A stretch of 64,000 nt of DNA from Thermoplasmata archaeon (GTDB lineage Archaea; Thermoplasmatota; Thermoplasmata; Lutacidiplasmatales; UBA184): contig JAKIWI010000001.1 in assembly GCA_022750115.1 (NCBI GenBank), positions 222,419-286,418 of the forward strand, in the 5' to 3' direction. The notes under the pieces were generated by a model, which saw nothing but the letters and a program-made list of their open reading frames with translations, searched no databases and was not told the DNA's origin. Shown one piece after another: positions 6,801 to 37,741 of the stretch. Every line of letters begins with the position of its first letter. Position 1 is the first letter of the stretch. The translations under genes and the position numbers were made by a program.

Positions 6801-7670
6801 ACGAAGGCGGGGACGTACGACGTGACGATCTCCCTGCGGGACACCGCCGGGGGCTTCCTGCAGGTCTCCGGGAACCTCACGGTCAATCCCGTCGGGGGGA
6901 GCGGGGGAACCGGTCTCGTCATCTCCGGGTTCGGCGCCGCCTCGGGTCCGGCCACCGTCGGTTCGACCGTCGTCCTTTCGGTTCTCGCCAGCGGAGGGAG
7001 CGGCCCGCTCACCTACCGATACACGTCCCTGCCGACGGGCTGTGCCTCGGCCAACACCTCGGCCCTTCCGTGCGACCCGTCGTCGCCCGGACTCTACCCC
7101 CTGCGCGTCGTCGTGTCGGACGCGGCCTCGCACGTCGAGGGCGCCGTCGGCATGCTCCTCGTGATCGACGCGAGCGGACCGGCGCCCGCCGTCTCGGCGT
7201 TTTTCGCGACGTCCCCGACGGTCACGGTCCCCAACTCGACGGTGTTCATCGTCGAAGTCCGGGGCGTGCTTCCGCTGTCGTTCGTGTACGCGGGCCTCCC
7301 GGCGAGTTGCGAAAGCGCCAACGTGAGCGTACTCAATTGCACGCCGATCGCGACCGGGATGTTCACCGTCACCGTCCACGTAACGGACCATATCGGTCGG
7401 ACGACCTCGGCCTCGACGTCGCTCGTCGTGCAGAGTCCGAACGTCATCTTGCCGATTGGAGGGGTGCACGTCAAGCCAGCGGCTTCGCTCTGGAGCGAGA
7501 TTCCCTTGTACGGGTACGCAGCGTTCGCGGGAGCGATCGTCCTGACGGCCCTGCTGGGCGCGCTTTACCGGGCCGAGCGGAGGACCCGGGCGGAGGGCGA
7601 GGCGATCGTCCGGGAGCTGAATCGACGAGCGGACGAGGTTCCGCCGAGCGAGGAATCGAGAAAGCCGTGA
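3846..7670 (+). CDS. Large surface protein: signal peptide, kelch-like beta-propeller repeats, about 5 Cys-containing Ig/PKD-like repeats, C-terminal TM anchor and cytoplasmic tail
   Basis: Repeated (M)xYDAADGYVLLFGG...DTWxF units, repeated GGxxPxxYxYxxLPxGCxxxNxxxLxC units, and TM YGYAAFAGAIVLTALLGALY. Confidence 0.85.
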   Translation: MASPLPAYARRLDRTLARAESGRWGRHTPSPMVAVLSVLTILGMSSLLGGAMAPSNSSATHASPGRVAPTATAAPLSAASASLGAIGGPLPHVPWTCPASAASTLHCSAPAAPARPAANVTGGWIAGPTPPARGLLVYDAKDGYDLLMAEAPSSNPLAYYGGVASYFSYSNGTWSTLTLVGGPAFCGAGALAYDSSDQVVVFWGNALCRSAGDTWTYQGGAWTNVTGASAPPVAIGANVANDPSVLGLLYFGGCCANGTGGWTWSYSARTWTNRSSSVSAEPTADSYGAMSYDSTDRGVVLVEGPTASSFSTSYHTWFFNGSWSAEPTAPVPSTNGRIAPGLADDPTDHYVVLVPSWNGTVNRTGPSFHYANGTWSKGPLQTGLSESLYPALDYDPSAKVAGDLLLEPTVGGAIQGATTTWLYHGGNWTNLTGATNGPGARAEIAMTYDAADGYVLAFGGCACQPNVNVSGAKSDTWKFSKGNWTQLPTNASPSARTLAGLVYDAADGYVLLFGGLGPSGSLNDTWEFNAAQGNWTPITPVTAPPWYQGETMAYDGSDSYVVLLTGGIPASTWTYHAGVWTNLTALGDRSIDGAPANPIVFNGPLAHVVLFGTAHAQSGYSPYLLADTWWFHGGNWTNLTATAKSPPPARSGASMADFASGGAFVLLYGGSQSFDGLSAPLNDTWEFNGSWTKLSPAVSPGNRSDMSGTFDAADQLDVFYGGWYGQFSPAPLACSVNGPCGDTWYWSGGSSSTPLVQAFTASPSPVDLGSTTHLAVSVIGGTPPFSYNYTNLPTGCASANNGKLNCTATVTGSWTVSVVATDSGGHAASARVLVVVNAALALSGFTATPSPAIVSVRSLLTVQLSHGTAPFSYAYSGLPTGCATQDVPTLPCTPSGVGNFSVGVSVQDGGGGAVTGSLNLSVADAGLIYGLGFSSYSISPSTVVLGNASTISINASSPNGPITYAYGNLPPGCSSSNASSISCLATKAGTYDVTISLRDTAGGFLQVSGNLTVNPVGGSGGTGLVISGFGAASGPATVGSTVVLSVLASGGSGPLTYRYTSLPTGCASANTSALPCDPSSPGLYPLRVVVSDAASHVEGAVGMLLVIDASGPAPAVSAFFATSPTVTVPNSTVFIVEVRGVLPLSFVYAGLPASCESANVSVLNCTPIATGMFTVTVHVTDHIGRTTSASTSLVVQSPNVILPIGGVHVKPAASLWSEIPLYGYAAFAGAIVLTALLGALYRAERRTRAEGEAIVRELNRRADEVPPSEESRKP

Positions 7671-7713
7671 GCCGCCTCCCTCAGGCCGCATTTGGGTAGG
7701 GGAGTGGGTCGCG

Positions 7714-8283
7714 CTGATCCTCTGGGAGTTCGTGGCCGGCGTGGCCGTCGGAGCCGCGGCCGTGGCCGGCCTTTGGCTGATCGTCCGACACCTTCGGCCG
7801 GCGCCCCGCCCGACCCCCGCCCTCGAGCCGGAGGACCCCAGCGCTGCGCGAACCGAGGATGCGGTGCCCCGCGTGGAGGTCGTCCGGCCCCCCGTGCCCT
7901 CGGCGCGGGAGCCGACCGGGGGGTCCGATGACGCGCCGCCCGAGGAGCGGCTCCGTACGTCGCAGCGGGTGATCCTGCAGGTGATGGCGCAGGGGCGACT
8001 CGCGCCGGGCGAAGTCGCGCCGTTCGGGCTCTCGCAGGCCGGAATGGGCGAGGCGCTGCACCTCACGCAGAGTTCTCTTGCGAAGACGCTCGGGCGACTC
8101 GTCGCGGCCGGCGTTCTCACGGTCGGCCGTCGCCACGTGGAGCACCAGGACCGCCGTTTGAAGGTCTACGAGTTGACCCCGCTCGGCGAATCGTTGGCCC
8201 GTGACCTTCGCCACCGGTCCGTCCGCGCGTCGTTGGCTCCCCCGGACCGTCGGCCGCCTCGGCCGATGGAGTTCGGTCGCTGA
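7714..8283 (+). CDS. Membrane-anchored winged-helix (MarR-like) DNA-binding protein
   Basis: N-terminal hydrophobic helix (LILWEFVAGVAVGAAAVAGLWLIV), Pro-rich linker, then wHTH SQRVILQ..LSQAGMGEALHLTQSSLAKTLGRLVAAGVL..RRLKVYELTPLG. Start is either CTG 7714 (after GGGGAG) or GTG 7732. Confidence 0.8.
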   Translation: MILWEFVAGVAVGAAAVAGLWLIVRHLRPAPRPTPALEPEDPSAARTEDAVPRVEVVRPPVPSAREPTGGSDDAPPEERLRTSQRVILQVMAQGRLAPGEVAPFGLSQAGMGEALHLTQSSLAKTLGRLVAAGVLTVGRRHVEHQDRRLKVYELTPLGESLARDLRHRSVRASLAPPDRRPPRPMEFGR

Positions 8284-8397
8284 TCCGCCCGAACCGCGCG
8301 AACGGGGGCCCGCCCACGCTCGATCCTACCTCGGAGTTTCGCCGGCGGTGCGCCACCCGTCTCGGTAGGTCTATCTAGCACGAACGAGTCACCGAAA

Positions 8398-8988
8398 ATG
8401 GAGTCCGTCCGTATGAGAATGGGTATCGTGGTAGTGGGGATCGTCTTGCTGGTGATCGGGGCCGTCCTGCTGTTCGTCCCTCTCGTGCCGCAGCCCGATC
8501 AAACGGTCAAGTCGAACTCGTCGCTCCCCTTCGACCTCTTCAGCGTGTCCGGGTTCTCGGTGACGGGCAGCATCCCCGTCGCCGTCTCCTGGACTTCCAA
8601 CGGAACGGTCACTGTCGTCGCGGCGGCTGGCTCGAGCGAGGCCCAGTACACGGGCGCCTCCGGCGGCGTGTCCGGGCTCGTCACACAGACCGGGACGAGC
8701 GGCTCGTTCTCGCTGAATCAACCCGATGGCGGCGAAGTTGTGTTGGGCGTGCTCAGCGGAAGCGCGTTCGGTGGCTCCAGCTCCAATGCCACCGTCGCGT
8801 TCCACGTGACCGTCGCCCAGACTACGGTCGGATCGCTCCTCCTGATCGTGGGGATCGTGATCCTCATCGTCGGCATCGTGCTCAAGTCGAAGTCGGCGAA
8901 GATGGCGGCCCCGGCCGCAAACCAGTGGACGCCACCCCCGTCCCCACCCGCGTCGGGTGACATGCCCCCGACGCCTCCGTCCTCGTAG
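8398..8988 (+). CDS. Hypothetical membrane protein (TM, small beta-rich ectodomain, TM, Pro-rich tail)
   Basis: Two strongly hydrophobic segments flank a Ser/Gly-rich beta region. Confidence 0.75.
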   Translation: MESVRMRMGIVVVGIVLLVIGAVLLFVPLVPQPDQTVKSNSSLPFDLFSVSGFSVTGSIPVAVSWTSNGTVTVVAAAGSSEAQYTGASGGVSGLVTQTGTSGSFSLNQPDGGEVVLGVLSGSAFGGSSSNATVAFHVTVAQTTVGSLLLIVGIVILIVGIVLKSKSAKMAAPAANQWTPPPSPPASGDMPPTPPSS

Positions 8989-9049
8989 GCCGGAACCCCC
9001 GCCGCACGGCCCCCTTGGGCCGTGCGGCCCCCTCTGCCTTCGACCGGAG

Positions 9050-10087
9050 CTACCGCTCGGCCGCGCCGGGAAACGCCCCTCGGTACATCGCGAGGTGCGA
9101 CTCGACGACGGCGGGCCATCCGAACCGCTGTTCGGCGGAGGCCCGGGCGGCGAGCGCCATCGGCTGACGCACCGACGGATCGCTCAGCTCGCGCAATCGG
9201 GCGGCCAGGAATCGGCGGATCGCCTCGTCGTCGGCCGTTCCCGCCGCGGCCCACCCGGTGACGCCGGACTCGACGAGTCCCGCGATGGGCTCGGCCCCCA
9301 GCACGGGCAGCGACGCCGAAAGGCCCTGCAGGACCGCGCCGGCCAGCACCTCGACGCGGCTCGGATGCAGCAGCACGTCGGCGCGCGCGTACTCGCGGCG
9401 GAGTTCGTCGTCCGTGAGCTCGCCGAGGACTTCGACTTCGGGGTTGGCCGCCCGCACCCGTTCGAGGTAGCGCGCGTCGGGAGTGGGTCCCACCAATCGG
9501 AACGACCACCCCGCGTCGCGCGCCGCCGCCGCGGCGAGCTCCCAGCGCTTGAGGGGGGCAACGACCCCGACCCCCAGGGCGCCCCGCCCGCTGCGAGCGG
9601 CGGGGTCCGACCGAAACCGGTCGGTGTCCACTCCGATCGGGATCACACGCAACCGCGACTCCACGGGCGGTACCGAGCGGGCGATCTCCGCCCGGAGTCG
9701 TTCGGTCAGGGCGACCGTCGCCCGAGCCCGGGCGACCGCGCGGCGCTCCAGCCAGAAGCCGAATCGCTGCCGAGCCCCGACGCGCTCGAACCAGTGCCGC
9801 GAATGGGAGGTGAAGACGAACGGTATCCCCGCCATCGCGAGACGGTTCGCGACCGCAGGCGTACTCGCGTGGACCGCCTCGGCCCCGACGGCCCGGACGA
9901 GAGCCGGGAGGGTGAGCGCGAATAGGTACTCATCGACCGAGCGGCCGTGCCGCACCCGGTTGATCACGACCGGATCGTGGCCCGCGGCCCGGAGGGCGCT
10001 TGCGAACTCGGCGATCGTCCGCTCGACACCGCCGTAGCCGACAGGGGGGATCGCCTGGACGCCCGTTCCGACGAGGGCGATGCGCAC
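9050..10087 (-). CDS. Glycosyltransferase family 4 (GT-B)
   Basis: MRIAL..PPVGYGGVER, IPIGVDTDRF, ADVLLHPSRVE. TTTATC box about 23 nt upstream on the minus strand. Confidence 0.9.
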   Translation of the reverse strand: MRIALVGTGVQAIPPVGYGGVERTIAEFASALRAAGHDPVVINRVRHGRSVDEYLFALTLPALVRAVGAEAVHASTPAVANRLAMAGIPFVFTSHSRHWFERVGARQRFGFWLERRAVARARATVALTERLRAEIARSVPPVESRLRVIPIGVDTDRFRSDPAARSGRGALGVGVVAPLKRWELAAAAARDAGWSFRLVGPTPDARYLERVRAANPEVEVLGELTDDELRREYARADVLLHPSRVEVLAGAVLQGLSASLPVLGAEPIAGLVESGVTGWAAAGTADDEAIRRFLAARLRELSDPSVRQPMALAARASAEQRFGWPAVVESHLAMYRGAFPGAAER

Positions 10088-10163
10088 GAGCGGGTCATCG
10101 CGGGCCGGAGATAAACTCCACGATGGGGAGAAGCGTCATACCCATGCCCGAACGTCGGAGGGC

Positions 10164-10649
10164 ATGGCCCGCTGGCTCGTCAAAGAGGAGCCGACCCACT
10201 ACTCGTTCGCCGACCTCCGCCGGGACGGGAGCGCCGAGTGGGACGGCGTGCACAACGCACTGGCGTTGCGGCACCTGAAGGCGATGCGCCGCGGCGACGA
10301 GGTCTTGTACTACCACTCCGGCGGCGAGCGCTCCGTGGTCGGGATCGCGCGCGTCGCGGGCGCGCCGTACGCGAACCCTTCGGACGACCGGGGTTCGTGG
10401 TCGGTACGCCTCGCGCCCGTGCGAACGCTTGCGACCGCGGTCCCCCTCTCGACCCTCAAGGCCGATGCGGCCCTCACCTCGTTCGACCTGGTTCGCATCG
10501 GGAGGCTTTCGGTGATGCCGGTCTCGGACGAGCAGTGGGCCCGCGTGCTATCGTTCGAGTCCAAGTCGAACGTCGTTCGTCAGAGCAGATCGGCCGCGCG
10601 TCGACCGAAGCGCCGAGCCGCCGCCGCCCGGAAGCGTTCGTCGACGTAG
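10164..10649 (+). CDS. EVE domain protein
   Basis: WLVKEEPTHYSF..WDGVHNALA..MRRGDEVLYYHS..GRLSVMPV. ATG 10164 follows GGAGG. Confidence 0.9.
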   Translation: MARWLVKEEPTHYSFADLRRDGSAEWDGVHNALALRHLKAMRRGDEVLYYHSGGERSVVGIARVAGAPYANPSDDRGSWSVRLAPVRTLATAVPLSTLKADAALTSFDLVRIGRLSVMPVSDEQWARVLSFESKSNVVRQSRSAARRPKRRAAAARKRSST

Positions 10650-11845
10650 ACGGCCGCGACCCAGACGCTCCGCGGCCGGAGCGCCAGCGCCCGCCAAACG
10701 CTCGGCGCCCGGAACGGGTGGACGATCTTCCCGTCCTCCTCGACGCCGACCTCGTTCCAGTCGGCGCCCGGCGCCTCCCGGCGGTCGAGCCCCGACAGGT
10801 CGAACAGCACCGCGCCCGGCGGGGCCCGGATCTGCTCCGCGAGTTCGTCCTCCCGCGCCCTTCGCTCCGCCGGGTCCCGCGCGAGCCGAACGAGCCCGCG
10901 GCGCTCGGCGGCTCCGAGCGACTTCCAGCCGACGAGCCGTTTCGGAAGTCGGCGCTCGAGGATGCCGCGCACGAGCTCGGCCGGGCGACCGCCTTCCTGC
11001 TGCAGCGCGACCAACAGGTCGGCGTCCGTTCCCGCCAGCAGAGGGCGAGCGGACTCCGGGTAGCCCCGGATCCGTTCGACCGCGCCCTGCGTCAGGACCT
11101 CGGCGGCGCGGACCGTCTTGTGGTAGTAGACGGACGAGTACATCAGTGCCCGACCGACGAGGAAGCCCTCGACGGCCTGGCGGCCTTTCTCGGCAAAGAC
11201 GAGGCGCGAGCGGCTCGCTCGGACCGTGTCGAGCAGTCGGACGGCATCGATCGCGCCGTGCCCCACGCCGGTGTAATGGGCATCCCGCTGGAGGTAGTCG
11301 ATGCGGTCGGCGTCGATCGCGCCGTGGAGCATCGCCCGCAGGAGCGGCGGGGGAGACGCTCCCGACGGGTCGACGAGGGCTGCGACCGATGGCGGTCGGA
11401 TTCCGTGGGACTCGAGGATCTCCGCGATCGTGGGTCCGGGTCCGCGGCCGAGCGCGTCGGGTCCCTCCGAGAGGATGGTGGCCCGGCTTCGGCCCTCGTG
11501 CCCGATCCCGACGACCTCCCGCAGCGTCGGTTCGAGAGTGTGCGAAAACGGCGTGTGACCCAGGTCATGGAGGAGTCCCCCCGCCGCGACCCGGGCCGTC
11601 GCCTCCTCGTCGAGGCCCAACCGCTCGGCCATCGTTCGCACGACCGCGTGGACGCCGAGCGAGTGCTCGAGCCGCGTGTGGTTGGCCCCCGGGAACACGA
11701 GGTGAGCCAATCCGGTCTGACGGATCCCCCAGAGGCGTTGGAACGCGCGGTGGCCGACGAGCTGGAGGAAGACGCCCTCCAGCGTGATCCCGCCGTGGAC
11801 CGGGTCGAAGATCGTCTTGCGAGCGACCCCGCGTTCGGCGGCCAT
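10580..11845 (-). CDS. HD-superfamily phosphohydrolase (dNTP triphosphohydrolase/SAMHD1-like, YwfO-like family)
   Basis: DPVHG, FQRL..IRQTG, HTRLEHSLG, LLHDLGH.PFSH, DADRIDYLQRD, MYSSVYYHK. Confidence 0.92.
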   Translation of the reverse strand: MAAERGVARKTIFDPVHGGITLEGVFLQLVGHRAFQRLWGIRQTGLAHLVFPGANHTRLEHSLGVHAVVRTMAERLGLDEEATARVAAGGLLHDLGHTPFSHTLEPTLREVVGIGHEGRSRATILSEGPDALGRGPGPTIAEILESHGIRPPSVAALVDPSGASPPPLLRAMLHGAIDADRIDYLQRDAHYTGVGHGAIDAVRLLDTVRASRSRLVFAEKGRQAVEGFLVGRALMYSSVYYHKTVRAAEVLTQGAVERIRGYPESARPLLAGTDADLLVALQQEGGRPAELVRGILERRLPKRLVGWKSLGAAERRGLVRLARDPAERRAREDELAEQIRAPPGAVLFDLSGLDRREAPGADWNEVGVEEDGKIVHPFRAPSVWRALALRPRSVWVAAVYVDERFRAAAARRFGRRAADLL

Positions 11846-11954
11846 CCGGCGCTCCGGAGCCCCGACGCGCGATAAAGCCGGGTCCTGCGCTCCGGCGGGG
11901 CTTCCCCGTTCGACGTACGTATTTATCGTCGAGCCCGGGTTCTCCTGATGCCCG

Positions 11955-14900
11955 ATGCCGGCCGCTTCCGAACCGGCGCGCCGCGAAGCCGTGGCTTCCC
12001 CACTCGAGGAGGCCCGGCGGCTCTACGCGGCGGCGCAGGACAATTCCATCCGCGACGACCGCGGCCGCCAGTCCGAGCGGCTGAAGGCGTTCCTCGCCTA
12101 CGTCGACGCCCACCAGGGCGATCTCGGGCGCGAGGGCGGGGAACTCTCGAAGAACCTCGACGACACCGCGGTCGCCTTCTACCGCTCGAACCAGCCGGAC
12201 CTGGCGCTCCGCGCCGCGGAGGTTGGCCTGGGGCTCGTCCCCGGTTCCTCCGCGCTCCTCCACCACAAGGCGCTCGTCCTGATCTCCCAGAACCGGGAAG
12301 TCGAAGGCGCCGTCGTTCTGCTCGACCGTGCGCTCGAGGCGAACCCGCACGACAAGTCGATCTGGGCGACCAAGGGCGATGCGCTGAAGCTCCAGGGAAG
12401 GGGCACCGAGGCCGCCGACGCCTACCTACGCGCCCAACAGCTCGACGTCGCCTCGATGCAGTACGTCGAGAAGGCCCTGAAGGCCGCGCCCGCCCATCCG
12501 GCAGCGCTCAAGGCGAAGCTCGAGCTCGCGCGCTCGCACGGTGGCAATCGCCCGGCGCTGGAAGCGGCCGAGGCGCTCCTCGTGGAGAACCCCGAGGACG
12601 AAGAGCTGCTGCTCGCGCGGGCCGAACTGCTCGCCGCCGTCGGGGATCTCGACCGGGCGCTCGTCGCCGTGGGTCCCCTCCGGACGAAGCGTCCCGCGGA
12701 TCCGCGCATTCTGATGCTGGAGGGCCGGCTCGACTTCGCGCTCGGGAAGCCCGCGGAAGCCGTGGTGGCGTTCCGCGCCGCGGTGGCCGGCCCGTCGCCG
12801 CTCGAATCGCCCCAGCTCGCCGAGATCGCCGAACGGCTGGAGGCGGCGGGGGCCGATGCCGCGCTCGCCATCGAGGTCCGGCAAAAGCTGCGGGCGTCCG
12901 ACCCGAAGAACGTCGCGAACCTCCAGGCGCTCCAAGAGCTCGCGCGCCGGACCGAGGACCCGACGCTCGGGATGGCCACCGCCCAGCAGATGCTCGAGTC
13001 GTCGCCCGACAACCTCGACGGGTTGCGATCGCTCGCAGAGTTCCAGCTGGCCGCCCACCACCCCGACGACGCGTTCGCAACGTACGCCCGGATCCAGAAG
13101 GCCCACCCGAACGCGACCGCGGAGCTTCGCAAGGCGATGGAGGCCGCGCGCGCCGTGGGCCGCGCCGACCTGATGGTCGGGTTCGCCCGCGCTCTCGTCG
13201 AGGAGGACCCGTCCGACCTCGCGGCGAAGGCCGAGCTCGCGAAGGCGCTCGAGGCGGCCGGAGACCGAGAAGGCGCGCTCGGACTCTACCGCGACCTTCT
13301 GAACCGCCAGCCCGAGACGTCCGAGTGGGTCCACGAGACCGCCCGCCTCCTGCGCGACCTGGGACGCACCGACGAGCTCCCGGCCGTCTACGACGTCCTG
13401 TTCCGCCTCGACCCGACCCGCTCCGACCTCGCCCTCGAGCGGGGGAACCTGATGCTCGGCATCGCGCTCGCGAAGGCGGAAGGGTCGGCCGAGCGTTCGG
13501 AGGCGGCCCGGTCCGCGCTCGTCTCCTACGAACGGGCCTCTGTCGACCCGAACCTCGCCGAACCGAGCCTGCTCGGCCTCGCCCGGGCCTCGCGCGTCGT
13601 GGGCGACCACGACCGCGCGATCCTCGCGTATCGGCAGTTCCTGCAACTCGGCACGAACGCGGGTCGGGGGGACGTCAAGAAAGAGCTCGGCCACGCGCTC
13701 CGCGAGACCGGCCAGCTCGCCGCCGCCGAGACGACGTACCAGGAGGCGCTCGACCTCGGCGTCGAGGACCCGGACCTTCTCTGGGGCGCCGTCGAGGTCC
13801 TGAGCCAACAGAACGAGGAGGAGAAGGCGCTCCGATTCGTCGAGGCGCTGCTACGGCGCGAGCCCCAGAACCCGTTGTTCCTTCGCCGGCGCGGTCAACT
13901 GCTCCTCAAGGCCGGCCGCCGGACCGAGGGCCTCCAGGCGCTCCGCACCGCGGTCGAGGCGGCCGGCGCGGACCCGCACGTCCGATTCGAAGTCGCCGAG
14001 GCGCTCCGCGCCGGCGGCGCCTACGCCGACGCGGTCCAACAGTACCGACAGGCGCTCCAGCTCGACCCGAAGAGCCGGCCGGGCCGGCTCGCGCTCGCGG
14101 AGACACTGACCGTCGCCGGGCGATACAACGAGGCGATCCCGATCATCGATGAGCTCCTGACCGAGGACCCGAACGACATCGGGGCCTGGCAGTCGCGGGC
14201 CAACGCCTACCGGGCGCTCGGCCGGACCGCCGACCTGCAGTACTCCCTGAAGGCGATCCTGCTCCTCGATCCGAACCACGCCCCGGCGCTTCTCGAGAAG
14301 TTCCGGATGCACCAGGCGGCCGGGGAATCGGGGGACGCCTACGACGCGCTCCACCAGCTGCTCGCCTCGGAGGCGGCCGACGCCGCCGACCCCGCACTGT
14401 TCCTGCAAGCCGGCGACCTCGCCGCCGAGCTCGGCCGCGGCGAAGAGGCGAACCGCGCCTACGAGCGCGCCGCCCAGCTGGAGCCGGGCCTGATCGGGGA
14501 GATCGCGAACCGCCGCGCCCGGCTCCGGCTCGCGGCCGGCCGCCCCGACCTCGCGCTCGAAGTACTCGATCAGACGCTCGCCCAGGGTCCGCCCGGCGAG
14601 GGACCGATCGGCACTCTGCTGCTCCGCGCCGAGATCCTGATGGCGCTCGAGCGACAGCCCGAGGCCGTCGCGGTCTTCGAGCTGGTCCGGCAGAAGGAGC
14701 CCCGCGCCCCCGCGGCGCTCGCCGGCATCGGCCGCGCGCTCCTCGACCAGGGAAAGCACGGCGAGGCGAAGACGTTCCTCTCGCAGGCCATCCCCCAAGT
14801 TCCCCCCAACGCGACGATGTTCCTCCTTCTCGCGGAGGCCGAGAGCGGCCTCGGGGAGATTCCCGCGGCGGTGGAGGCGGTCCGGAGAGGGACGGAGGTT

Positions 14901-17729: not shown

Positions 17730-17741
17730 GTACGGTCCACC

Positions 17742-28616: not shown

Positions 28617-28619
28617 CGG

Positions 28620-29060
28620 TCAGTCCCCTCGGTGAGGACGTCGGACGACCGGCGGTCGGGTTTTAACCGTTGCCCGGAGCAGCGGTTTCGTCGACGGAGG
28701 CCGGAGCTCGAGCCGCGCGCGGTCCCGCGGGCGGAGCACCGCGAGGCCGGCCGAGCGGGCCCGCTCCAACAGCTTCTCGTCGGACGATGCTACGACGGCG
28801 TGGAGCGCCACGGCGCTGGCGAGCACGGCCGCGTCCCCCACGCCGCGGGACGGCACCCGGGCCCATCGACCGGCGAGCGCGCGAGCGGCGCGGGCGTTCG
28901 GGACCTCGCGCGCCACGAGCCGATCGAGCTCTGCGGCGACGGAGCGCGGAACGCCGAGCCGGGCCGTTCCCGAGAACAGGCGCTCGAGCTCCTCCTCGAG
29001 GCGGATCCCGTGCGTGAACGGCCAGAACAACGCGTTGGTGTCGAGGACGACCCAAACGAC
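28620..29060 (-). CDS. PIN-domain protein (Fcf1/Utp24-like archaeal family); start codon unclear
   Basis: WVVLDTNAL (upstream of the ORF-track TTG), VAAEL, GDAAVL, VASSDEKL..RAR..GL.VL. Confidence 0.75.
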   Translation of the reverse strand, partial: VVWVVLDTNALFWPFTHGIRLEEELERLFSGTARLGVPRSVAAELDRLVAREVPNARAARALAGRWARVPSRGVGDAAVLASAVALHAVVASSDEKLLERARSAGLAVLRPRDRARLELRPPSTKPLLRATVKTRPPVVRRPHRGD

Positions 29061-29073
29061 GGCGGAGGAGTCG

Positions 29074-30666
29074 CTACGGGCGTCGGAGCGCGATGCCGAG
29101 CGCCTCGCGGTCGTACTGCTCGCCTCCCGTTCGCTGGCGGAGCACGTAGCGCTGCGCCTTTTGATTCGCGGTCTTCGGGATCTCCTTCACGAACTCGAGG
29201 TAGCGGGGTACCATGAAGAACGGGAGGTGCTCGACGCAGAACTCGAACAGCTCAATGGGCGTCGCGACGCCATCGGGTTTTAGCTGCACAAACGCCTTCA
29301 CGTCCTCCTCCCCCAGTGGGGACGGCACGCCGACGACCACGCACTCGAACACCGCCGGGTGGGTGGTAAGGACGCTCTCGACATCGTACGGGGCGAGGTT
29401 TTCGCCCCGCCGCCGGATGACGTCCTTCTTCCGGTCGACGAAGAAGTAGTAGCCGTCGGCATCACGGGTCACGAAGTCGCCGGTGTGGAACCAGAGGTTC
29501 CGCCACGCCTCGACCGTCGTTTCGGGCTTGTTCAGATACCCCAGGAACATCGTGAACGGCGCGCGCGGCCGGACCACCAGCTCACCGCGGGCGCCGACGG
29601 GCACGGGCTGGTCGGAGTCGTCGACGACGTCGGCCTCGACGAAACCGAGCGGAATGCCCACCGATCCGACACGGACCGCGTCGGGCGGGTTCATCAAGGT
29701 CGTGCAGCCGCACTCCGTCATGCCGTAGAGTTCGAGGATGCTCAGCCCGAACCGCTTCTCGAACGACGGCCAGATGTCGCGCGTCGCGCCGGCGGTGAGC
29801 GCCGTGCGGACGTTGTGCGTCCGGTCGCTCGGGCGCTCGGGCTGTTTGTAGAGCACCGTGACCATCGAGATCAGCAGCGAGACGTGGGTCGCGCCGAACG
29901 CCGCGGCCGTCTCCCAGAACGTCGTGGCGTGGAACCGCTCGTCGAACGCGCAGGTGAGGTCGTTCAGGAGCGCGGTGAGGGTCGTCATCTCTTGTGCGTT
30001 GCAGTGGAACAACGGCAGCGCCGTGAACAGCACCGAGCGCTCTTCGAGTCGGCTCCGCGCTCCGATCTCCCTCGGCGTGCGCAGGTACTTCTCGTGCGGG
30101 ATGATCGCGCCCTTCGGCGGCCCGGTCGTGCCGCTCGTGTAGAGGATCGCGGCCGGGTCCTCGCCCCGGAGCACGGGTAGGGTCGGGGCGGGACGGGACC
30201 GATCGAGGTCGGAGAACGGGAGAGTCCCGGTTGGGTCGGTCCCTGGTTCGGATGCGGCGGGCACGACCCACTCCATCGGGATCCCCAATCCCTCCCGGAA
30301 CGGGGCGTACGCGGTCCACAGTCTTCGGTCGACCGCGATGGCCTTCGGCGCGGAGTCCGCGAGCTCGTAGCGAAGGATTTCGCCCTTCAGGCCGGTATTG
30401 AGAGGCACCAGGAGGGCGCCGAGCCGCGCGGCCCCGAACCACAACTGGAGGAACTCGGGCCCGTTCAGCAGGAGGGCCGCGACCCGATCCCCCTGCCCGA
30501 TCCCGGCCGCTGAGAGGCCGGCCGCGACTCGGTCGGTCGCCGCATCGAGCTCGGAGTACGACATCGACCGGCCGGCGAATCGGGCGGCGATGCGGTCGCC
30601 GTTCTTGCGCGCCTTCGCTCGCACGAGGCCGCCGAGGTCGTGGAAGACCTCCTCGGGTGCGAGCAT
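29074..30666 (-). CDS. ATP-dependent acyl-CoA ligase (CaiC-like AMP-binding enzyme)
   Basis: ILYTSGTTGPPKG, LPLFHCNA, YGMTE, WFHTGD, DRKKDVIRRRGEN, PKTANQK. Alternative start at ATG 30693. Confidence 0.9.
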   Translation of the reverse strand: MLAPEEVFHDLGGLVRAKARKNGDRIAARFAGRSMSYSELDAATDRVAAGLSAAGIGQGDRVAALLLNGPEFLQLWFGAARLGALLVPLNTGLKGEILRYELADSAPKAIAVDRRLWTAYAPFREGLGIPMEWVVPAASEPGTDPTGTLPFSDLDRSRPAPTLPVLRGEDPAAILYTSGTTGPPKGAIIPHEKYLRTPREIGARSRLEERSVLFTALPLFHCNAQEMTTLTALLNDLTCAFDERFHATTFWETAAAFGATHVSLLISMVTVLYKQPERPSDRTHNVRTALTAGATRDIWPSFEKRFGLSILELYGMTECGCTTLMNPPDAVRVGSVGIPLGFVEADVVDDSDQPVPVGARGELVVRPRAPFTMFLGYLNKPETTVEAWRNLWFHTGDFVTRDADGYYFFVDRKKDVIRRRGENLAPYDVESVLTTHPAVFECVVVGVPSPLGEEDVKAFVQLKPDGVATPIELFEFCVEHLPFFMVPRYLEFVKEIPKTANQKAQRYVLRQRTGGEQYDREALGIALRRP

Positions 30667-30760
30667 TCGCGCCGGCGAGCCACCTCGGGCCATAATGGTT
30701 CGGACCTCTCGCGAGGAGTTATCGGGAGGCCGCCGACTGCGGCGCCGGGCCCGAGGGATC

Positions 30761-31222
30761 GTGCGGAGATTGACGGAAGCGTTCCGGACCGACCGGCCGG
30801 CGAGGGCGGAGCTCGCGGCGGGGGCGGCGGTCGTCGACCCCGAGCGCGGGGAGTTGCTGCTCCTCCATCTCACCGCGGAGGACCGCTGGTGCTTCCCGAA
30901 GGGGCACGTCGAGCCGGGGGAGTCCGTGGCGATGGCGGCCGCCCGCGAGGTCGAAGAGGAGACCGGCGTCTCCGGCGTAACCCTCGGTCCCGAGATCGGT
31001 CTCGTGACGTACCGATTCTACAACCCCCGCAAGGACCTGAACGTCGTCAAGACCGTCGTGTACTTCGTCGTCTCCTTCGCGCGCCGACCGATCCAGCCCG
31101 AAGCCGGGTTCGACGAGGGCCGATGGGTGACGTTCGAGGCGGCGGGTCCGATGCTCGAGTTCCCGGCGGACCGGGAAGTGCTCGACCTCGTCGCCCGCTG
31201 GCGCACGGCGGCGCCCTCGTGA
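30761..31222 (+). CDS. NUDIX hydrolase (Ap4A hydrolase-like)
   Basis: AAGAAV, WCFPKGHVEPGES...AAAREVEEETG Nudix box. Confidence 0.88.
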   Translation: MRRLTEAFRTDRPARAELAAGAAVVDPERGELLLLHLTAEDRWCFPKGHVEPGESVAMAAAREVEEETGVSGVTLGPEIGLVTYRFYNPRKDLNVVKTVVYFVVSFARRPIQPEAGFDEGRWVTFEAAGPMLEFPADREVLDLVARWRTAAPS

Positions 31223-31289
31223 TCCCACCACGCGAGTCGGAATGGGTTGGGGGCCGGGAGCGGTCTGCCCCCGGCCAAGCACGTTCTCG

Positions 31290-32711
31290 CTACGCTCCGC
31301 CGCTCGGGGGCATCGGGGGCGTCGGTCCCTGCGGGGGCGGAGGGGGGAGCCCCTGGGAGCCGGCGACCTGCTGGCTGTAGCCGCCGACGAGCTGGCCCTG
31401 GGAGTGTCGGCGTGCCCAAGCGCGGTACTCGACGACCCCGACCGTGCCGACGATCACGACGGCCACGAGGCCCACGACGAGCAACGTCACGATCGAGCTG
31501 GCCGCCCCGGAACTCCCCGAGCACGAGGAGCGGAGGCAGCTCGCGGCGTGCTGCGCCTGGGTGACGGTCTCCGGCTGGCCCTGCACGAGGGCCGTCGAGG
31601 GGGGCGCCGAGCCACCCGGGCCCGCGGCCGTTACTGTCGAGGCGCTCGAGAGGCTCGCGTCCGACCCTGCGTAGGTGGAGGCGGACGCCACGACCTGGAG
31701 CCGGTGGTGCGCGGCGTCGACCGCGACGTCGAGCCGGGAGGTCGTGACCGCCTCGGCGCCGAGCGCGTGGCCGTCCCAGTCGTGGTGGCCGGAGCCGAAC
31801 ACCTCGTAGCCGTGCGGCACGAGGATCACGCCCTCGATGTTGTCGAACGGACCCGAGATCGCGAGCACGATCGCCGGAACGGTCATCCCGTTCGACAGCG
31901 TGATCGGCCCGAGGTCCGCGCCCTGCAGCGCGACCGTGCCGGTGCCCGAGACGTTTCCGCTCGGCGCGCCGCTCCCCGACGAGGTCGTGCCGAGGAGCGA
32001 CGTCACGGCGTAGCTGTAACTCGCGCCCCACGCGCCGCTCGCCGAGTACGAGGCGCTCGAGTTCCACTGGAGTCCCTGCGAGAGGTTCCAGGGAACGAGC
32101 CCGAGCGAGGGGGAGAACGCGACCTGGGTGTTGGCGTGTCCAATGACGCTGAGGCGGCCGGTCGCGGTGTGGCCGCCGAGCGTGAGCGAGTAGGACTCGT
32201 TCAGGTTCGCCGATCCCTGGGACGACGCGTTGTCAAGGCCGACCGCGGGGACCGCCGTGCCGTTCACATAGACCGTCGCGAGGCCGGTCAGGTTCGCGAA
32301 TCCAGCGTCGGATTCGGATCCCTGGATCGAGAGGTTGCCCGCCGTCGACGGGTGCGTGCAGTTCGGCTCGCAGTACGTGGCGAACAGGCTCGCCGCCATC
32401 GTCCGCTGCGCCTCGAGGGCGACCGTTCCGAGCGTCGTGTTCGTCGCGGTGACGATGACCTGCCAGCCGAAGAACGCGTGCGAGGAGTACGACGTGTTCC
32501 CGAGCTGGACGCTCGTGTTCACCCACTTCGCGCCGCCGTAGGCCCACTGTTGACTCGCCGCCGCATTCGCGCCCACCGAATTGGTCGTCAATCCCGCCGA
32601 CCCGGCGGGGGCTCCCTGGGCCGTCGCGGTGATCGCCGGGAGGCCCAAGGCCATCACGGCGACGACTGCGACCACGGCCCAGAATCCGTTCGTTCGTCCG
32701 TTCCGCTGCAT
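31290..32711 (-). CDS. Secreted, C-terminally TM-anchored hypothetical glycoprotein
   Basis: Signal peptide, Ser/Thr/Asn-rich beta region, TM IVTLLVVGLVAVVIVGTVGVV, Pro-rich tail. Confidence 0.75.
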   Translation of the reverse strand: MQRNGRTNGFWAVVAVVAVMALGLPAITATAQGAPAGSAGLTTNSVGANAAASQQWAYGGAKWVNTSVQLGNTSYSSHAFFGWQVIVTATNTTLGTVALEAQRTMAASLFATYCEPNCTHPSTAGNLSIQGSESDAGFANLTGLATVYVNGTAVPAVGLDNASSQGSANLNESYSLTLGGHTATGRLSVIGHANTQVAFSPSLGLVPWNLSQGLQWNSSASYSASGAWGASYSYAVTSLLGTTSSGSGAPSGNVSGTGTVALQGADLGPITLSNGMTVPAIVLAISGPFDNIEGVILVPHGYEVFGSGHHDWDGHALGAEAVTTSRLDVAVDAAHHRLQVVASASTYAGSDASLSSASTVTAAGPGGSAPPSTALVQGQPETVTQAQHAASCLRSSCSGSSGAASSIVTLLVVGLVAVVIVGTVGVVEYRAWARRHSQGQLVGGYSQQVAGSQGLPPPPPQGPTPPMPPSGGA

Positions 32712-32836
32712 TCGTTCCCTTCTGTGGGACGGCGGTTCGCCGTCCTGGCCGGATTCAGCCCGGAAACGCGTGATAAACCCCCGTCTCGGTCGGCCGAGGG
32801 GTCGTTGGACGGTGTGCTAGGCCGTCGCTGCCACCG

Positions 32837-34528
32837 TCAACGACTGGTCCCGTCCCCGCCGGTCTTGCCGGGGATCCGGAACCGCGCTTGCCGAGCAACG
32901 GCGAGCGAGCTCTCGTAGCCCGCATCCGCGTGCCGAGCGACGCCGAGGCCGGGGTCGTTGTGCAGGACCCGGCCGATCCGCCGGTCCGCCTGGGTGGTCC
33001 CGTCGGCGACGATGACGAGGCCGGCATGGATCGAGTTCCCGATGCCGGTCCCCCCCCCGTGGTGGACCGAGACCCACGAGGCTCCGGAGACGGCGTTGAG
33101 GAGAGCGTTCAGGATCGGCCAGTCGGCGATGGCGTCCGAGCCGTCCTTCATCCCCTCCGTCTCGCGGAACGGGCTCGCGACGCTGCCGGTGTCGTGGTGG
33201 TCCCGACCGATGGCGATCGGCGCGGCGAGGGCCCCCCCCCGAACGAGGTCGTTCACGAGGTGGCCGAACCGCTCCCGCTCGCCGTACGCCATGTAGCAGA
33301 TCCGCGCCGGCAGCCCCTGGTATCGGACCCGTTCCGCGGCGAGACGGATCCACCGCACCAGGTCCGGACGCTCCGCGAACTCCGACAGCACCATCCGGTC
33401 GATCCGGGCGATGTCGGCGGGGTCGCCGGAGAGCGCGACCCATCGGAACGGGCCGCTCCCGACGGCGAACAACGGGCGGATGTACGCCGGGACGTAGCCC
33501 GGGATGTCGAACGCCTCCGCGACCCCCGCTTCGCGCGCCTGGGTCCGGAAGTTGTTGCCGTAGTCGAACGCTTTCGACCCGCGCTGGCGCATCTCGAGGA
33601 TCGCTCGCGCTTCGAGCGCGATCGACTGCCGTACCTCGGTGAGGTACTCTTCGAGGTTCGCTTCCCGGGCGCGTCGCGCCGTCTCGGGAGTGCGGCCGAT
33701 GGGGATGTAGCCGACCCGGATGTCGTGGGCGGCCGTCTGGTCGGAGACCACGTCGGGCGTGATCTTCCGTCGCACCAGTTCCGGGTAGACCTCCGCGGCG
33801 TTCGCGCACAACCCGACGGAGAGCGGCCGGCGCTCGGACGCCGCGAACCGAACCCGCGTGAGGGCATCGCCCAGGTCGGCCGCCTCCTCGTCCAGGTAGT
33901 GGTTGCCGAGCCGCCGTCCGAGGGCGCGAGGGTCCACGTCGACGATGAGCGCCGCCCCGCCGAGCATCGTGACCGCGAGCGGCTGGGCCCCGCCCATCTC
34001 GCCGAGTCCGCTCGATAGGACCCACTTGCCGGCGAGGTCGGACTGTCCGAACTCAATCCGCGCGAGCGAGGCGAGCGTCTCGTAGGTGCCCTGGAGGATC
34101 CCCTGGGTCCCGATGTAGATCCAACTGCCCGCCGTCATCTGGCCGTACATGGTGAGGCCCCGGGCCTCGAGCGGCCAGAACTCGGCATCCGTCGCCCACC
34201 GGGGGACGATCATCGCGTTCGAGATCAGGACCCGAGGCGCGTCGGTGTGGGTCGGAAATACCCCGACCGGCTTTCCGGACTGGACGAGGAGAGTCTCCTC
34301 GTTGCCGAGCGTCTTCAGCGTGGCCACGATCTGGTCGTACGCGCCCCAATCTCGGGCCGCCTTTCCCCGTCCTCCGTAGACGATGAGGTGCTCGGGGTCC
34401 CGCGCCACGTCGGGGTCGAGGTTGTTCATCAGGAGGCGAAGCGCCGCCTCTTGACTCCAGCCGCGGCAGGACAACGACGGTCCGTGGGGCGCCCGGATCG
34501 GTTCCCGCCGCGCCTCGGGGACGGCCAC
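32837..34528 (-). CDS. hutU: Urocanate hydratase
   Basis: [77 protein letters not shown]. Start approximate. Confidence 0.95.
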
Positions 34529-34751
34529 GGCACGCGGAGCCCCGGGGGCTTGAAAGGTTGCGCCGGCGGCGGGCTCGACGGGCGCCCGCGCGCGGGGATC
34601 GGGGTCGGGGCGCCCGACCCGGGGTGGCCACCGCACCTGCCGGACTCGGAGGGGACGAGGTACTCAGACGACGTGGAAACGACCGATGGGCGCGTTTTCT
34701 CGTCGTATCTTTGACGGACCCTTATAAGCTCGGAGCGCCCGCATAGCCCGC

Positions 34752-36773
34752 ATGCAGCGCCGCCCGCCGTCCAGCGTGTCTTCCCCCCCGACTCCCTCCA
34801 ACGATGCCGCTCCTCGTCCCATGCGCCGACGTGCGGCCACTTGGTCCGTCGTCCTCGTGGCGTCGTTGCTCGCGCTCGGCCCTGTCGTTGTCTTTGCCGG
34901 TTTCCTCGGTCCTGTCCCGGGATACTCGGCCGCTTCGCACACGGTGGCGCCTGTGGCTCCGTTCGGTCGCACTGGGGCGAATGGCTCGGGTGGAAACGGC
35001 TCCGGTGGGAATTCGTCGGGGGGAATTGGAACGACCGGTAACGCCAGCCAAGGTTCGAACGTCAGCCCGTACCCCCACAACGCAACGCACGCCGCTTGGA
35101 ATGTCTCCGCGTGGAACTACTACCTCCGATTCTCGACGCTCACCATCCTGACCGTCGGACACGGTTCCGCCACCTTGACCATCGTCGGAAACATCCAGAC
35201 CCCGACCACTCCGGCGGTGATGGCGATCCAGTTCGGAAACAGCCACTGGGCGAACCAGACCTACAACTCCACCGCCGGCTACCTCAACGTCACGAACACC
35301 TACTCGGCGGCCGGAAACTACAGCCTGCTCCTCAACCTGAGCGAACCGTTCGCCTCGACGCATGTCCAGACCTCGATCGGGGTCTGCCTGGTGAATTGCT
35401 CGGCCGGGAACACCTCGGGCGGCAACGGTTCCGGGCACCCCTCGTCGGGATCGAACGTGACGATCAGCACGGCGAACGCGTCCTACACGGTGTGGGGAAT
35501 GTCCGCCTGGAACGGAACCTTGACCATCAACGCCACCGCGACCTTGCCGAGCGCGAATTTCGCGCCCAATCTCACCGTGAAGGGGACGGTGGCGTGGCCG
35601 AACTCCCCCGCTCAATTCACCGTACTCTTCGGGGACGGAAACTCCTCGGCCCAGAACTTCGGAGGCATCAACAACTCGACGTCGAACACCGGAGTCTCGA
35701 GCTTTGCGGCGTCGCACCTGTACTCCACCCCGGGCTGGCACTTCCTGAGCCTCCGGTTCACCGACCGCAATGCGACCGCGCAGGTGTCGACCGGGATTTT
35801 CATCGTCATCCCCCATAGCTCCGGCAACGGGTCGAATAACTCCTCTGCCGGTTCGCGCGTCGCGGTGATCCAGCAGAACTCCAGCACGACCGTCCTCCAG
35901 CTGGTGGCCTGGAACGGCTCGCTCGCGATCAATGCGTCCGCGCGTCTCGCCCTCGGCCCGAACAACGCGTCCGCCGTCGTCAACGGGACGGTCCGGGACA
36001 CCCTGTCCCCGACGTTCGTCTCCGTCCTGTTCGGGAACGGCTACGGGACGAACTGGTCGTTCTGGTTGAACAATTCGACCGGCGCCTTCCACGCGTTCGG
36101 ATTCTACGGGACCGCGGGAAACTACTCGCTCTCCATCGGAGCGTACGACGCGAACCAGACCGCATTGGTTTCGACCGTGCTCTCGGTCGTCCTGGTGCCC
36201 GGCAGCAACAACAGCTCCGGACGCTACCCGACCTCAGTCTCGGTGACGGTCGGGGCGTCGCCCGTGACCGGGCCGGCCCCGATGACGACCACGCTATCGG
36301 CCTTCCTCAGCGGCGGTTCGGCCCCCTTCGCGGTGCTCTGGAGCGTGCCGGGAAGCAACTCGAGCGCCAACCTCAGCGGACTGATGGTATCCGTGTCCTA
36401 CCTGCACCCCGGATGGTACCCAGCGACGGCATTCGTCTACAACACGACCTCATCGTTCGGCAGCGTCCTCGTGGGGTTCGGCAGCGTCTGGCTCTACGCC
36501 TCCGGGAACGGGACCAACCACTCGGGCGGAAACGGGTCCGGGAACGGTTCCGGAAACGGCTCCGGCGAGACTCCCATCACCGGCGGTGCGCGGGGATCGA
36601 CGGCGACGACGCTCACCTCGCTCGAAGGAGTGATCGCCCTCTCCGCGGCCCTCGGTGCGATCCTGGGCGGCGTGGTCGGCTTCGCCTCTTCGCGACTCGC
36701 CATCTCGTCGGTCGCACATCGGGCCCCACCCTCCTCGGTCCGGGAGCCCCCCCGCGACCGACGCTCCGGATGA
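34752..36773 (+). CDS. Asn/Ser-rich surface glycoprotein with about 4 PKD-like repeats and a C-terminal TM
   Basis: Signal peptide, three AWN...FG(N/D)..Y...G.Y repeats plus a PKD-like GPAP..W...Y..PG domain, GNGS linkers, TM. CTTATAAG lies 24 nt upstream. Confidence 0.8.
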   Translation: MQRRPPSSVSSPPTPSNDAAPRPMRRRAATWSVVLVASLLALGPVVVFAGFLGPVPGYSAASHTVAPVAPFGRTGANGSGGNGSGGNSSGGIGTTGNASQGSNVSPYPHNATHAAWNVSAWNYYLRFSTLTILTVGHGSATLTIVGNIQTPTTPAVMAIQFGNSHWANQTYNSTAGYLNVTNTYSAAGNYSLLLNLSEPFASTHVQTSIGVCLVNCSAGNTSGGNGSGHPSSGSNVTISTANASYTVWGMSAWNGTLTINATATLPSANFAPNLTVKGTVAWPNSPAQFTVLFGDGNSSAQNFGGINNSTSNTGVSSFAASHLYSTPGWHFLSLRFTDRNATAQVSTGIFIVIPHSSGNGSNNSSAGSRVAVIQQNSSTTVLQLVAWNGSLAINASARLALGPNNASAVVNGTVRDTLSPTFVSVLFGNGYGTNWSFWLNNSTGAFHAFGFYGTAGNYSLSIGAYDANQTALVSTVLSVVLVPGSNNSSGRYPTSVSVTVGASPVTGPAPMTTTLSAFLSGGSAPFAVLWSVPGSNSSANLSGLMVSVSYLHPGWYPATAFVYNTTSSFGSVLVGFGSVWLYASGNGTNHSGGNGSGNGSGNGSGETPITGGARGSTATTLTSLEGVIALSAALGAILGGVVGFASSRLAISSVAHRAPPSSVREPPRDRRSG

Positions 36774-37741
36774 CCGCCGCGAGCCCTTGCATGGGTCACG
36801 GCCGAAAACCCGTGAGGACGGCCGGAAGTCGCCGGGCACGGGCGACCGCGCTGCGGGCCGCGGTCTGGCTCTCGATCGTGCTGACTCTCGGAGCGCTCGG
36901 AAGCCCCGCCTCGAGTCCGACGAATTCGCACCCGGCCGGCCCGGGAGTGGCCGCCGGCGTCGTCGTTGCGAACCAGCCGATTCTAACCTTGGTACCCTCT
37001 CCGGAGTCGGGCAACGCACCCCTGTCGGTCAACGTCACGGTCGCCGTCAGCGGCGGGATCGCGCCCTACAACCTTTCCCTCTGCTTCGGAACGAACGACC
37101 ACACGAGCCCAGCCCCGAATTGCGGGGTGGGAGCGAGCGGGTGGAACGGCACGACGGAGCTGGTGTTTTCGCATGACTACACCACGCCGGGAAACTTCAG
37201 CGTCACCGGCGTCGTCACCGACTCGCGGGGCTCCGGCGTCGGATCGACGGCCTTGATCGTCGTGACCGATCGTTCCGTCCTGGCGGCGACCGCCGACGAG
37301 CGGACGAGCGGCGGGGCCGCCCCCCTGTCGGTGACGTTCAACGAGAGCGTGGCCGGAGGGACGCCCCCCATCACGCTCCAGTGGACGTACGGCGATGGCA
37401 CCTCGGGCTCCGAGCTCCCCGGGGTACCGGTGGTCCACGTCTACGAGACCCCCGGCTCGTTCGAGCCTCTGCTGGCGGTGACCGACGGCGCCGGCCACCG
37501 AACGACCCAGGTCCTGCCTCGGATCACTGTGTCCGCGCCTGGCCACGCGGGTGGCGAGGTCGGTTCCGGCGCGCTGCCCGGCTGGCCCGCGATCGTCGGG
37601 GCGTTCGCGATCGCAGCGTTCACCGCGGGCGCGGTGGCGGTGGTCGTGCAGCATCGTCGTTGGCGCCGGGAGGGGAACGAGCTCGTCGCCCAGCTGGGTT
37701 CGAGGCGTGCGCCCCCAGCCACGACTCGCGCGAAACCGTGA
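36770..37741 (+). CDS. Two-PKD-domain surface protein with TM and an RRWRREGNELVAQL tail
   Basis: SGNAPLSV, HDYTTPGNF, WTYGDG..HVYETPG. ATGA overlap with the previous gene. Confidence 0.85.
   Translation: MTAASPCMGHGRKPVRTAGSRRARATALRAAVWLSIVLTLGALGSPASSPTNSHPAGPGVAAGVVVANQPILTLVPSPESGNAPLSVNVTVAVSGGIAPYNLSLCFGTNDHTSPAPNCGVGASGWNGTTELVFSHDYTTPGNFSVTGVVTDSRGSGVGSTALIVVTDRSVLAATADERTSGGAAPLSVTFNESVAGGTPPITLQWTYGDGTSGSELPGVPVVHVYETPGSFEPLLAVTDGAGHRTTQVLPRITVSAPGHAGGEVGSGALPGWPAIVGAFAIAAFTAGAVAVVVQHRRWRREGNELVAQLGSRRAPPATTRAKP

Follow-up and report, generated by a model that had tools for sequence, protein, structure and literature searches.

Two surface proteins encoded in a 64,000-nucleotide stretch of a Thermoplasmata archaeon genome (GenBank assembly GCA_022750115.1, contig JAKIWI010000001.1, positions 222,419 to 286,418 of the forward strand; this whole stretch is called the window) end in the same short cytoplasmic tail, and each of them is followed by a gene for a winged helix-turn-helix (wHTH) regulator. 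The tail is best read as the cytoplasmic coupling element of a two-gene cassette that consists of a surface sensor and its regulator. The hosts are uncultured soil archaea of the Thermoplasmata, in which the tail probably lets the sensor hold or control the regulator. The analysed genome comprises 2.12 Mb in 27 contigs with about 69% G+C, and the window is part of contig C5 (222419-286418). The features of the two cassettes are listed below in window positions.

3846-7670, + strand, likely 3939-7670: sensor 1, with kelch propeller repeats, immunoglobulin (Ig)/PKD-like repeats, many NxS/T sequons, one C-terminal transmembrane (TM) helix and the cytoplasmic tail.
7506-7568, + strand: TM helix of sensor 1, continuous with the tail in an AlphaFold2 model.
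7569-7667, + strand: cytoplasmic tail of sensor 1, made of a basic juxtamembrane stretch, the conserved helix and a proline-containing C-terminal end.
7732-8283, + strand: regulator 1, 183 residues, with an N-terminal TM helix (7732-7785), a proline-rich linker and a C-terminal MarR/PadR-like wHTH domain (7936-8229).
36413-37741, + strand, likely 36770-37741 from the ATG at 36770: sensor 2, with two PKD domains (Pfam), a C-terminal TM helix and the tail.
37589-37648, + strand: TM helix of sensor 2.
37649-37738, + strand: cytoplasmic tail of sensor 2, with the core RWRREGNELVAQL at 37658-37696 within ...QHRRWRREGNELVAQLGSRR...
37738-39045, + strand: regulator 2, 435 residues, with a signal peptide (37807-37860), two PKD domains, a TM helix (38452-38499), a linker and a wHTH domain (38683-38997).

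The reading frame of sensor 1 is open from a GTG at 3846, and the ATG at 3939, ahead of a signal-like hydrophobic stretch, is its likely start. The protein is 1,244-1,274 residues long, shows Pfam matches to Kelch and PKD/Ig, and carries the tail core RTRAEGEAIVREL at 7581-7619 within the post-TM stretch ...YRAERRTRAEGEAIVRELNRR... Regulator 1 starts 61 bases past the end of sensor 1 on the same strand. In the second cassette the stop codon of sensor 2 is overlapped by the GTG of regulator 2 (GTGA, 37738-37741), while the ATG of sensor 2 overlaps the stop codon of a preceding surface-protein gene, 34752-36773 (ATGA, 36770-36773). Because of these overlaps the three genes form one tightly packed run, which suggests co-translation. 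A first, sequence-only reading of the window had noticed that both sensors share a membrane helix, a tail of the form RRxRxEGxx[IL]Vx[EQ]L and a downstream wHTH gene in spite of their different ectodomains (kelch/Ig versus two PKD domains). Both indeed show a membrane helix, RRxRREGExLVxEL after it and a wHTH gene downstream.

The association of tail and regulator extends over the whole genome. By tblastn and profile search seven close wHTH paralogues were identified; a distant N-terminal wHTH in one 811-residue protein falls outside this close family. For six of the seven, the gene immediately upstream on the same strand encodes a large surface protein that ends in a TM helix and the tail. 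The four sensors located outside of the window are the following.

C5:353569-355791: cassette sensor with the tail ...AERKRSADRMVDSLESE...
C10:168685-172209: cassette sensor with the tail ...RLRLARQGEQIVADLRGS...
C13:123122-125425: cassette sensor with the tail ...RENAEGRRIVEELARRG...
C19:184077-186221: cassette sensor with the tail ...RRQAGQLVAELEHG...

The seventh wHTH domain (locus L034, C10 around 33783-36251) forms the C-terminus of a single protein with kelch, three PKD domains and a TM helix, and no motif follows that TM helix. A further kelch-PKD-TM gene is located just downstream of this fusion (C10 36213-38129).

A profile of TM helix plus tail, searched against the six-frame translation of the genome, retrieved exactly the six tails at E≤3.6e-7, and the next match (E 0.064) covers the TM segment alone. 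That profile included one row from an unpublished genome, G019; profile A1, which was built without G019, also yields six tails in this genome. No claim made here rests on G019, which is counted only in two of 31 and one of 80 matches given below. As a comparison set we took the 56 other open reading frames (ORFs) that, by a simple rule, are C-terminally TM-anchored and contain at least 10 NxS/T sequons. None of these 56 carries the tail and none adjoins a wHTH gene. When the last 70 residues were scored against A1, they reached at most 15.8 bits (median 4.9), their top scorers matching only the TM helix and RRR, and the six tail proteins reached 31-51 bits. Six of six against none of 56 corresponds in a Fisher test to 1 in 61 million, a value that is overstated as paralogues are not independent. 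The resemblance between the tails of the two window proteins is not a chance one. The search pattern proposed by the sequence-only reading gave 19 six-frame matches in the genome, three of which follow a TM helix near a C-terminus, and all three of these precede a wHTH gene.

Since the tail comes after a C-terminal TM helix and starts with basic residues, like an ordinary anchor, it might serve archaeal surface proteins generally for sorting or anchoring, or as a positive-inside signal. This explanation is very improbable, as it is contradicted both by the absence of the tail from the 56 other anchored glycoproteins and by the 80 matches in 120 genomes, described below, which all adjoin a wHTH gene. 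Archaeal C-terminal sorting signals of the PGF-CTERM type have a signature motif before the terminal TM helix and few basic residues after it. The tails do not belong to this type, since they extend for 24-45 residues with a conserved helix after the TM helix and are restricted to wHTH neighbours.

The same arrangement was found in related genomes. We compiled 57 distinct loci of the close wHTH family, 38 of them from genomes G000-G026 (G019 left out) and 19 from species-representative genomes, the latter being found with a wHTH pattern alone and after removal of six duplicates. At 41 of the 57 loci the upstream protein has a tail of at least 23 bits; 28 of these supplied rows for A1, so that their match is built in, and the other 13 are independent of it. 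Among the 19 further loci the upstream tail scores 23-45 bits in 13 and is a weaker variant in three. Five loci have no upstream tail ORF by the rule used, namely L071, L073 and the full ectodomain-TM-wHTH fusions L034, L048 and L050, and one locus lies at a contig edge. In the three fusions neither an upstream tail protein nor a motif after their own TM helix was found.

Searched against 41 related genomes, A1 gave 31 matches at E≤2e-5 (two in G019), every one directly upstream of a wHTH match, and the weaker matches in these genomes are confined to the model's TM portion. In a set of 120 genomes from the genus, A1 had 80 matches at E≤1e-5 (one in G019), spread over 46 genomes. All 80 lie directly upstream of a wHTH gene, with up to nine cassettes per genome. 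Thirty of the 80 stem from genomes that supplied rows to the profile, and each of them adjoins a wHTH gene. For the 50 matches from genomes without profile rows, a listed wHTH gene follows 200-1300 nt downstream on the same strand in 45 cases, and in the other five a wHTH gene was found on reading the DNA. No tail without a neighbouring wHTH gene was thus found among the 80 matches. A motif spread widely over surface proteins with no link to wHTH genes, which would have spoken against the sequence-only reading, was looked for in this genome and in the genus and did not appear (0 of 56 and 80 of 80, respectively), so that the link it had proposed from two cases now rests on all six tails of the genome and all 80 of the genus. 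Outside the genus there were three marginal matches only (E 0.002-0.005), on the TM part of the model.

The converse association is weaker. The wHTH profile has 183 matches in 62 of the 120 genomes, and fewer than half of these wHTH genes show a tail at the strict whole-genome threshold. This gap is in part due to the composition correction applied to whole long ORFs, which hides clear tails: those of L058, L060 and L063 were missed in this way and recovered by scoring the last 70 residues.

In the alignments the TM helix is followed by 7-10 mostly basic residues, then by E-G-E/x-x-[LIW]-[VIA]-x-[EQD]-[LM] and then by 10-20 variable residues. A proline near the C-terminus is 92% conserved in one column (columns 43-44 of alignment A3; window 7650-7667 and 37715-37738). 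The tails have one or two such near-terminal prolines, which frequently belong to an R-x-P-P or a K-P.

At the conserved E, G, V and L columns, entropy is low for codon positions 1 and 2 and high for position 3, with several synonymous codons in use (GAG 13/GAA 9; GGC 14/GGG 5/GGA 2/GGT 2). Because the third positions vary while the first two stay fixed, we conclude from the codons that selection acts on the peptide and not on a DNA or RNA element. The motif is located 50-120 nt upstream of the regulator start, and in cassette 2 start and stop codons overlap, so a promoter, an operator or a translational-coupling element within the 3' end of the sensor gene could in principle account for the conservation. 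However, in the conserved columns the third codon position varies as much as it does outside them, which contradicts such an element, and the distance from the sensor to the next start ranges from overlap to about 300 nt; this explanation is hardly credible. A search for an operator common to the regions ahead of the sensor genes showed only archaeal TATA-like boxes, with two of the seven assumed starts being wrong. One of the boxes, GTTTATAACC, is located at 3814-3823, about 120 nt ahead of the sensor 1 ATG, and TTTAAGA and TTTATGA are found before two other sensor genes.

Paralogues that share just 16-41% identity in their TM regions have kept the peptide, and so have proteins with either of two ectodomain architectures. 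This bears on the idea that the tail is an inherited trait of one surface-protein paralogue group, for example the vestigial C-terminal helix of a wHTH domain left behind when a fusion was split, with the pair duplicated as a unit and the tail having no regulatory role at present. Fused forms do exist, the tail is similar to the fourth wHTH helix (see below), and the pair is always adjacent, so that co-inheritance is expected. Yet a functionless stretch of 12 residues is not expected to persist through such divergence with its residues fixed and its synonymous codons varying, and we consider this explanation improbable.

In an AlphaFold2 model of TM helix plus tail both form one uninterrupted helix (residues 2-41 of 42, pLDDT, the predicted local distance difference test, 94.5). 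The model would thus place the motif on a rod that reaches about 3 nm into the cytoplasm.

The regulators share a wHTH domain whose scores for HTH_Crp_2, MarR_2 and PadR do not reach the Pfam cut-offs. By these models it is a member neither of PadR (PF03551; 16.5 bits, gathering cut-off 27) nor of MarR (PF12802; 18.6 bits, gathering cut-off 27), and its scores with the NCBIfam models for PadR and Rv3488 fall far short of the respective cut-offs as well. The best match of the wHTH profile to a solved structure is the PadR-family protein Rv3488 (E 1.1e-6, positions 12-99). An AlphaFold2 model of the domain (pLDDT 93.6) contains helices 2-17, 32-39 and 43-55, strands 59-66 and 72-78, and a last helix 80-94; it has the layout of PadR subfamily II, in which one C-terminal helix comes after three helices and a wing. 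The best Foldseek matches are AdcR, MarR and Rv3488, the likeness to AdcR and MarR being a general one (TM-score 0.55-0.70). Relatives in the databases are labelled 'winged helix', 'PadR', 'MarR' or 'hypothetical', and the closest named relative of regulator 1, with 84% identity, is labelled Candidatus Lutacidiplasmatales.

The regulators occur in several forms. The sequence-only reading spoke of a membrane-tethered wHTH, which applies to regulators 1 and 2 with their TM helices and is too narrow for the family: nine partner regulators in other genomes have no TM helix in any frame between the sensor stop and the wHTH domain. Each of these nine follows a sensor that ends in the tail or a weaker variant of it, and in these pairs the tail is the sole cytoplasmic part of the sensor. 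The sensors, which that reading called swappable, do fall into two ectodomain classes (kelch/Ig and PKD). They are not freely mixed, since in this genome kelch/Ig sensors precede plain TM-wHTH regulators and PKD sensors precede regulators of the type PKD-PKD-TM-wHTH.

The tail resembles a part of the regulator itself. An hhalign comparison of the tail with the wHTH profile gave a single match, between tail positions 13-28 and the fourth helix (P 0.0084), with the consensus GERLVRELEEE in the tail and GESLARELRRR in the helix. The mean ungapped 10-mer BLOSUM62 score of tail against fourth helix is 16.1, and the next best window scores 5.2. In dimers of PadR subfamily II the C-terminal helix contacts the helix-turn-helix (HTH) of the other monomer, according to the part of a preprint on which we draw (bioRxiv 10.1101/2022.04.29.490116).

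The tail is taken as the link between sensor and regulator because regulators without a TM helix keep tailed sensors, because fusions of sensor and regulator lack the motif, and because the tail resembles the fourth helix. From this we infer, with modest assurance, that the tail helix docks directly on the wHTH domain, as was proposed in the sequence-only reading. A complex prediction of the tail with the wHTH domain (regulator 1, residues 66-183) scored 0.57, versus 0.02 for the best of three controls, and was rated as weak support. In the calibration of this score, 58 of 80 solved complexes pass the mark, as do two of 110 mismatched pairs; only seven of the 80, and both passing mismatches, do so with a score of 0.60 or less. 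Custom alignments were used, so that these counts hold only roughly. At least 86% of contacts agree between runs, and the partner has a pLDDT of 66 or higher. The docking proposal has thus gained indirect backing from the soluble regulators, the fusions and the likeness to a dimerisation-type helix, and little from the modelled complex.

Several points weigh against docking. The complex prediction is weak and returned no contacts. The hhalign probability for tail and fourth helix is low (4.8% over 16 columns), and the fourth helix of a sensor's own partner is no more tail-like than that of other partners (38 pairs, permutation p 0.41). The tails are moderately amphipathic: their hydrophobic moment averages 0.60, and only in 13 of 28 is it higher than in 95% of shuffled versions of the same tail. 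Cassettes also exist with a weak motif or with none: nine of the 57 loci have weaker variants of 4.6-18.8 bits, still of the form R-rich-x-[GAS]-x-x-[WLI]-[VIL]-x-x-[LFMW]; L072, one of the 13 independent loci, owes its score to the TM helix and the basic residues and is without the hydrophobic triad; and at L013, which has low G+C and belongs to a different family within the order, the upstream TM protein has no motif. The association does not prove contact, as adjacent genes are co-inherited, and regulators with their own TM helix and PKD ectodomain could meet the sensor through the membrane or outside of the cell.

The same observations bear on a different explanation, in which the tail is functional and cassette-specific without touching the wHTH domain. 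It would bind to some third factor (a protease or a kinase, for example) or oligomerise the sensor, and the signal would pass through contacts between TM helices or ectodomains or through proteolytic release. The many regulators with their own TM helix, some of which have PKD ectodomains able to pair with the sensor outside of the cell, fit this explanation, as do the weak complex prediction and the lack of a cognate-specific likeness between tail and fourth helix. However, the nine soluble regulators, which have neither TM helix nor ectodomain, still follow tailed or variant-tailed sensors, and the motif is missing where sensor and wHTH domain are one polypeptide. The flanks that were viewed hint at no conserved third gene, although no search was aimed at one. 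Taken together we rate this explanation as possible and somewhat doubtful.

If the tail docks, the cassette may work as follows. Gene 1 encodes a large glycosylated surface sensor with a kelch propeller and Ig/PKD repeats, or with PKD repeats alone, whose single membrane helix runs about 20 residues into the cytoplasm, first as a polybasic stretch and then as the helix (R)EGExLVxEL. Gene 2, co-oriented and 30-90 nt downstream or overlapping, encodes the MarR/PadR-like winged-helix regulator in its membrane-anchored form, in a membrane-anchored form with its own PKD ectodomain, or in soluble form. The tail helix would dock on the wHTH domain and keep the regulator at the membrane, or modulate it there, until a change of state in the ectodomain. 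Docking may either inhibit or activate the regulator. A more specific version is proposed because the tail resembles the C-terminal helix of the regulator, which in PadR subfamily II packs on the HTH of the other subunit: as a mimic of this helix, the tail would occupy the site of the partner subunit's helix in a kind of pseudo-dimerisation. We put this version forward tentatively. Equally speculative is the wider proposal that the cassette is an analogue of anti-sigma control built from different parts, in which a receptor's 12-residue copy of a dimerisation helix captures the regulator as a pseudo-dimer and releases or pairs regulators once the ectodomain is engaged, and that this, with up to nine cassettes in a genome and about one histidine kinase in the analysed one, is the main transmembrane signalling device of these archaea.

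Some further features of the window and the genome were noted. The other surface proteins that the sequence-only reading had set apart (23991, 34752 and 40956) indeed have plain basic or proline-rich tails after the TM helix and no wHTH gene behind them. The surface protein 31290-32711 (- strand), for which it had seen a faint resemblance, ends in ...EYRAWARRHSQGQLVGGYSQQ... ('RRHSQGQLVGG'), which is faintly motif-like, and no wHTH gene follows downstream; it may be a decayed or an unrelated case. The ORF downstream of it (30719-31282, - strand) is not a wHTH gene and looks like an arginine-rich non-gene. Regulator 1 is followed by a 196-residue protein (8398-8988, + strand) with hydrophobic segments at both ends and a middle part rich in serine, glycine and threonine. 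More distant wHTH relatives (L014-L025; C8:14562-16997, - strand) carry an N-terminal wHTH domain in long proteins of 400-1100 residues and have no tail-bearing sensor upstream. Judged by eye they look like NTPase/repeat (STAND-like) regulators.

Transmembrane signalling in archaea is poorly understood, and these Thermoplasmata have few two-component systems. In this genome there are only four HATPase_c matches and five receiver matches, with one clear kinase-receiver pair (C13:22208-22938), compared with seven wHTH cassettes. The tail is a short and sharp motif that marks which surface proteins talk to which regulators. Together with the wHTH domain it makes a directly testable pair of peptide and domain (about 36 and 118 residues), and the split, fused and soluble variants are a natural series for dissecting the module. 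If docking holds true, this would be a minimal route that couples an extracellular sensor to transcription, and a natural case of control by mimicry of a dimerisation helix.

Several known systems are comparable to the cassette in part. Anti-sigma domains are folded domains of about 80 residues. Like pairs of anti-sigma and extracytoplasmic function (ECF) sigma factors, the cassette combines a single-pass sensor with a small cytoplasmic part and a transcription factor encoded in the same operon, which the sensor would hold. Unlike them it has no sigma factor, and about 12 conserved residues stand in place of the folded domain; neither window sensor has a Pfam or NCBIfam match to an anti-sigma domain, and the partner is a wHTH protein. 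In the Mlc-PtsG system a transporter sequesters a soluble repressor at the membrane, with the folded EIIB domain as the capture element. The control of a soluble DNA-binding protein by capture at the cytoplasmic face of a membrane protein is what we propose here as well, but the proteins are unrelated and the cassette uses a tail helix in place of EIIB. The L034 fusion of this genome is composed of the same kinds of domains, whereas the cassettes are split and their sensor gained or kept a tail helix that the fusion lacks. With Rv3488 and LmrR of PadR subfamily II the regulators share the small wHTH domain followed by one C-terminal helix, but they carry N-terminal TM helices, linkers or PKD domains, and their dimer is putative.

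The transmembrane transcription regulators (TTRs), which include ToxR, TcpP and CadC as well as the archaeal ArnR/ArnR1, have been surveyed in a census (PMC10269533). In the passages of this census considered here there is no mention of PadR, MarR, PKD or Thermoplasma. By its definition, a TM helix and a DNA-binding domain in one protein, regulators 1 and 2 are TTRs and the nine relatives without a TM helix are not. As in the TTRs, a DNA-binding domain is tethered by a single TM helix, is encoded beside a membrane partner (ToxS or TcpH in TTRs) and links the outside directly to transcription. Unlike these, the cassette regulators have an inverted topology with a C-terminal cytoplasmic MarR/PadR-like wHTH, whereas the domain of TTRs is N-terminal and of OmpR type. 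They are paired with a giant glycoprotein in which a cytoplasmic tail helix, and not a periplasmic domain, is conserved, and some of the regulators are soluble. Literature searches on membrane-bound regulators and on PadR anti-repressors gave no description of such a tail or cassette, which is no proof of absence; the one on archaeal membrane-bound regulators led to the TTR census and to papers on ArnR, none of them with a tail-docking system. In its proposed mode of action the cassette is comparable to an anti-sigma/sigma pair or to a TTR and its partner. It belongs to neither the anti-sigma nor the ToxR-type families. New are its split form, the conserved and cassette-exclusive tail helix that marks the sensor, and a family that includes soluble regulators.

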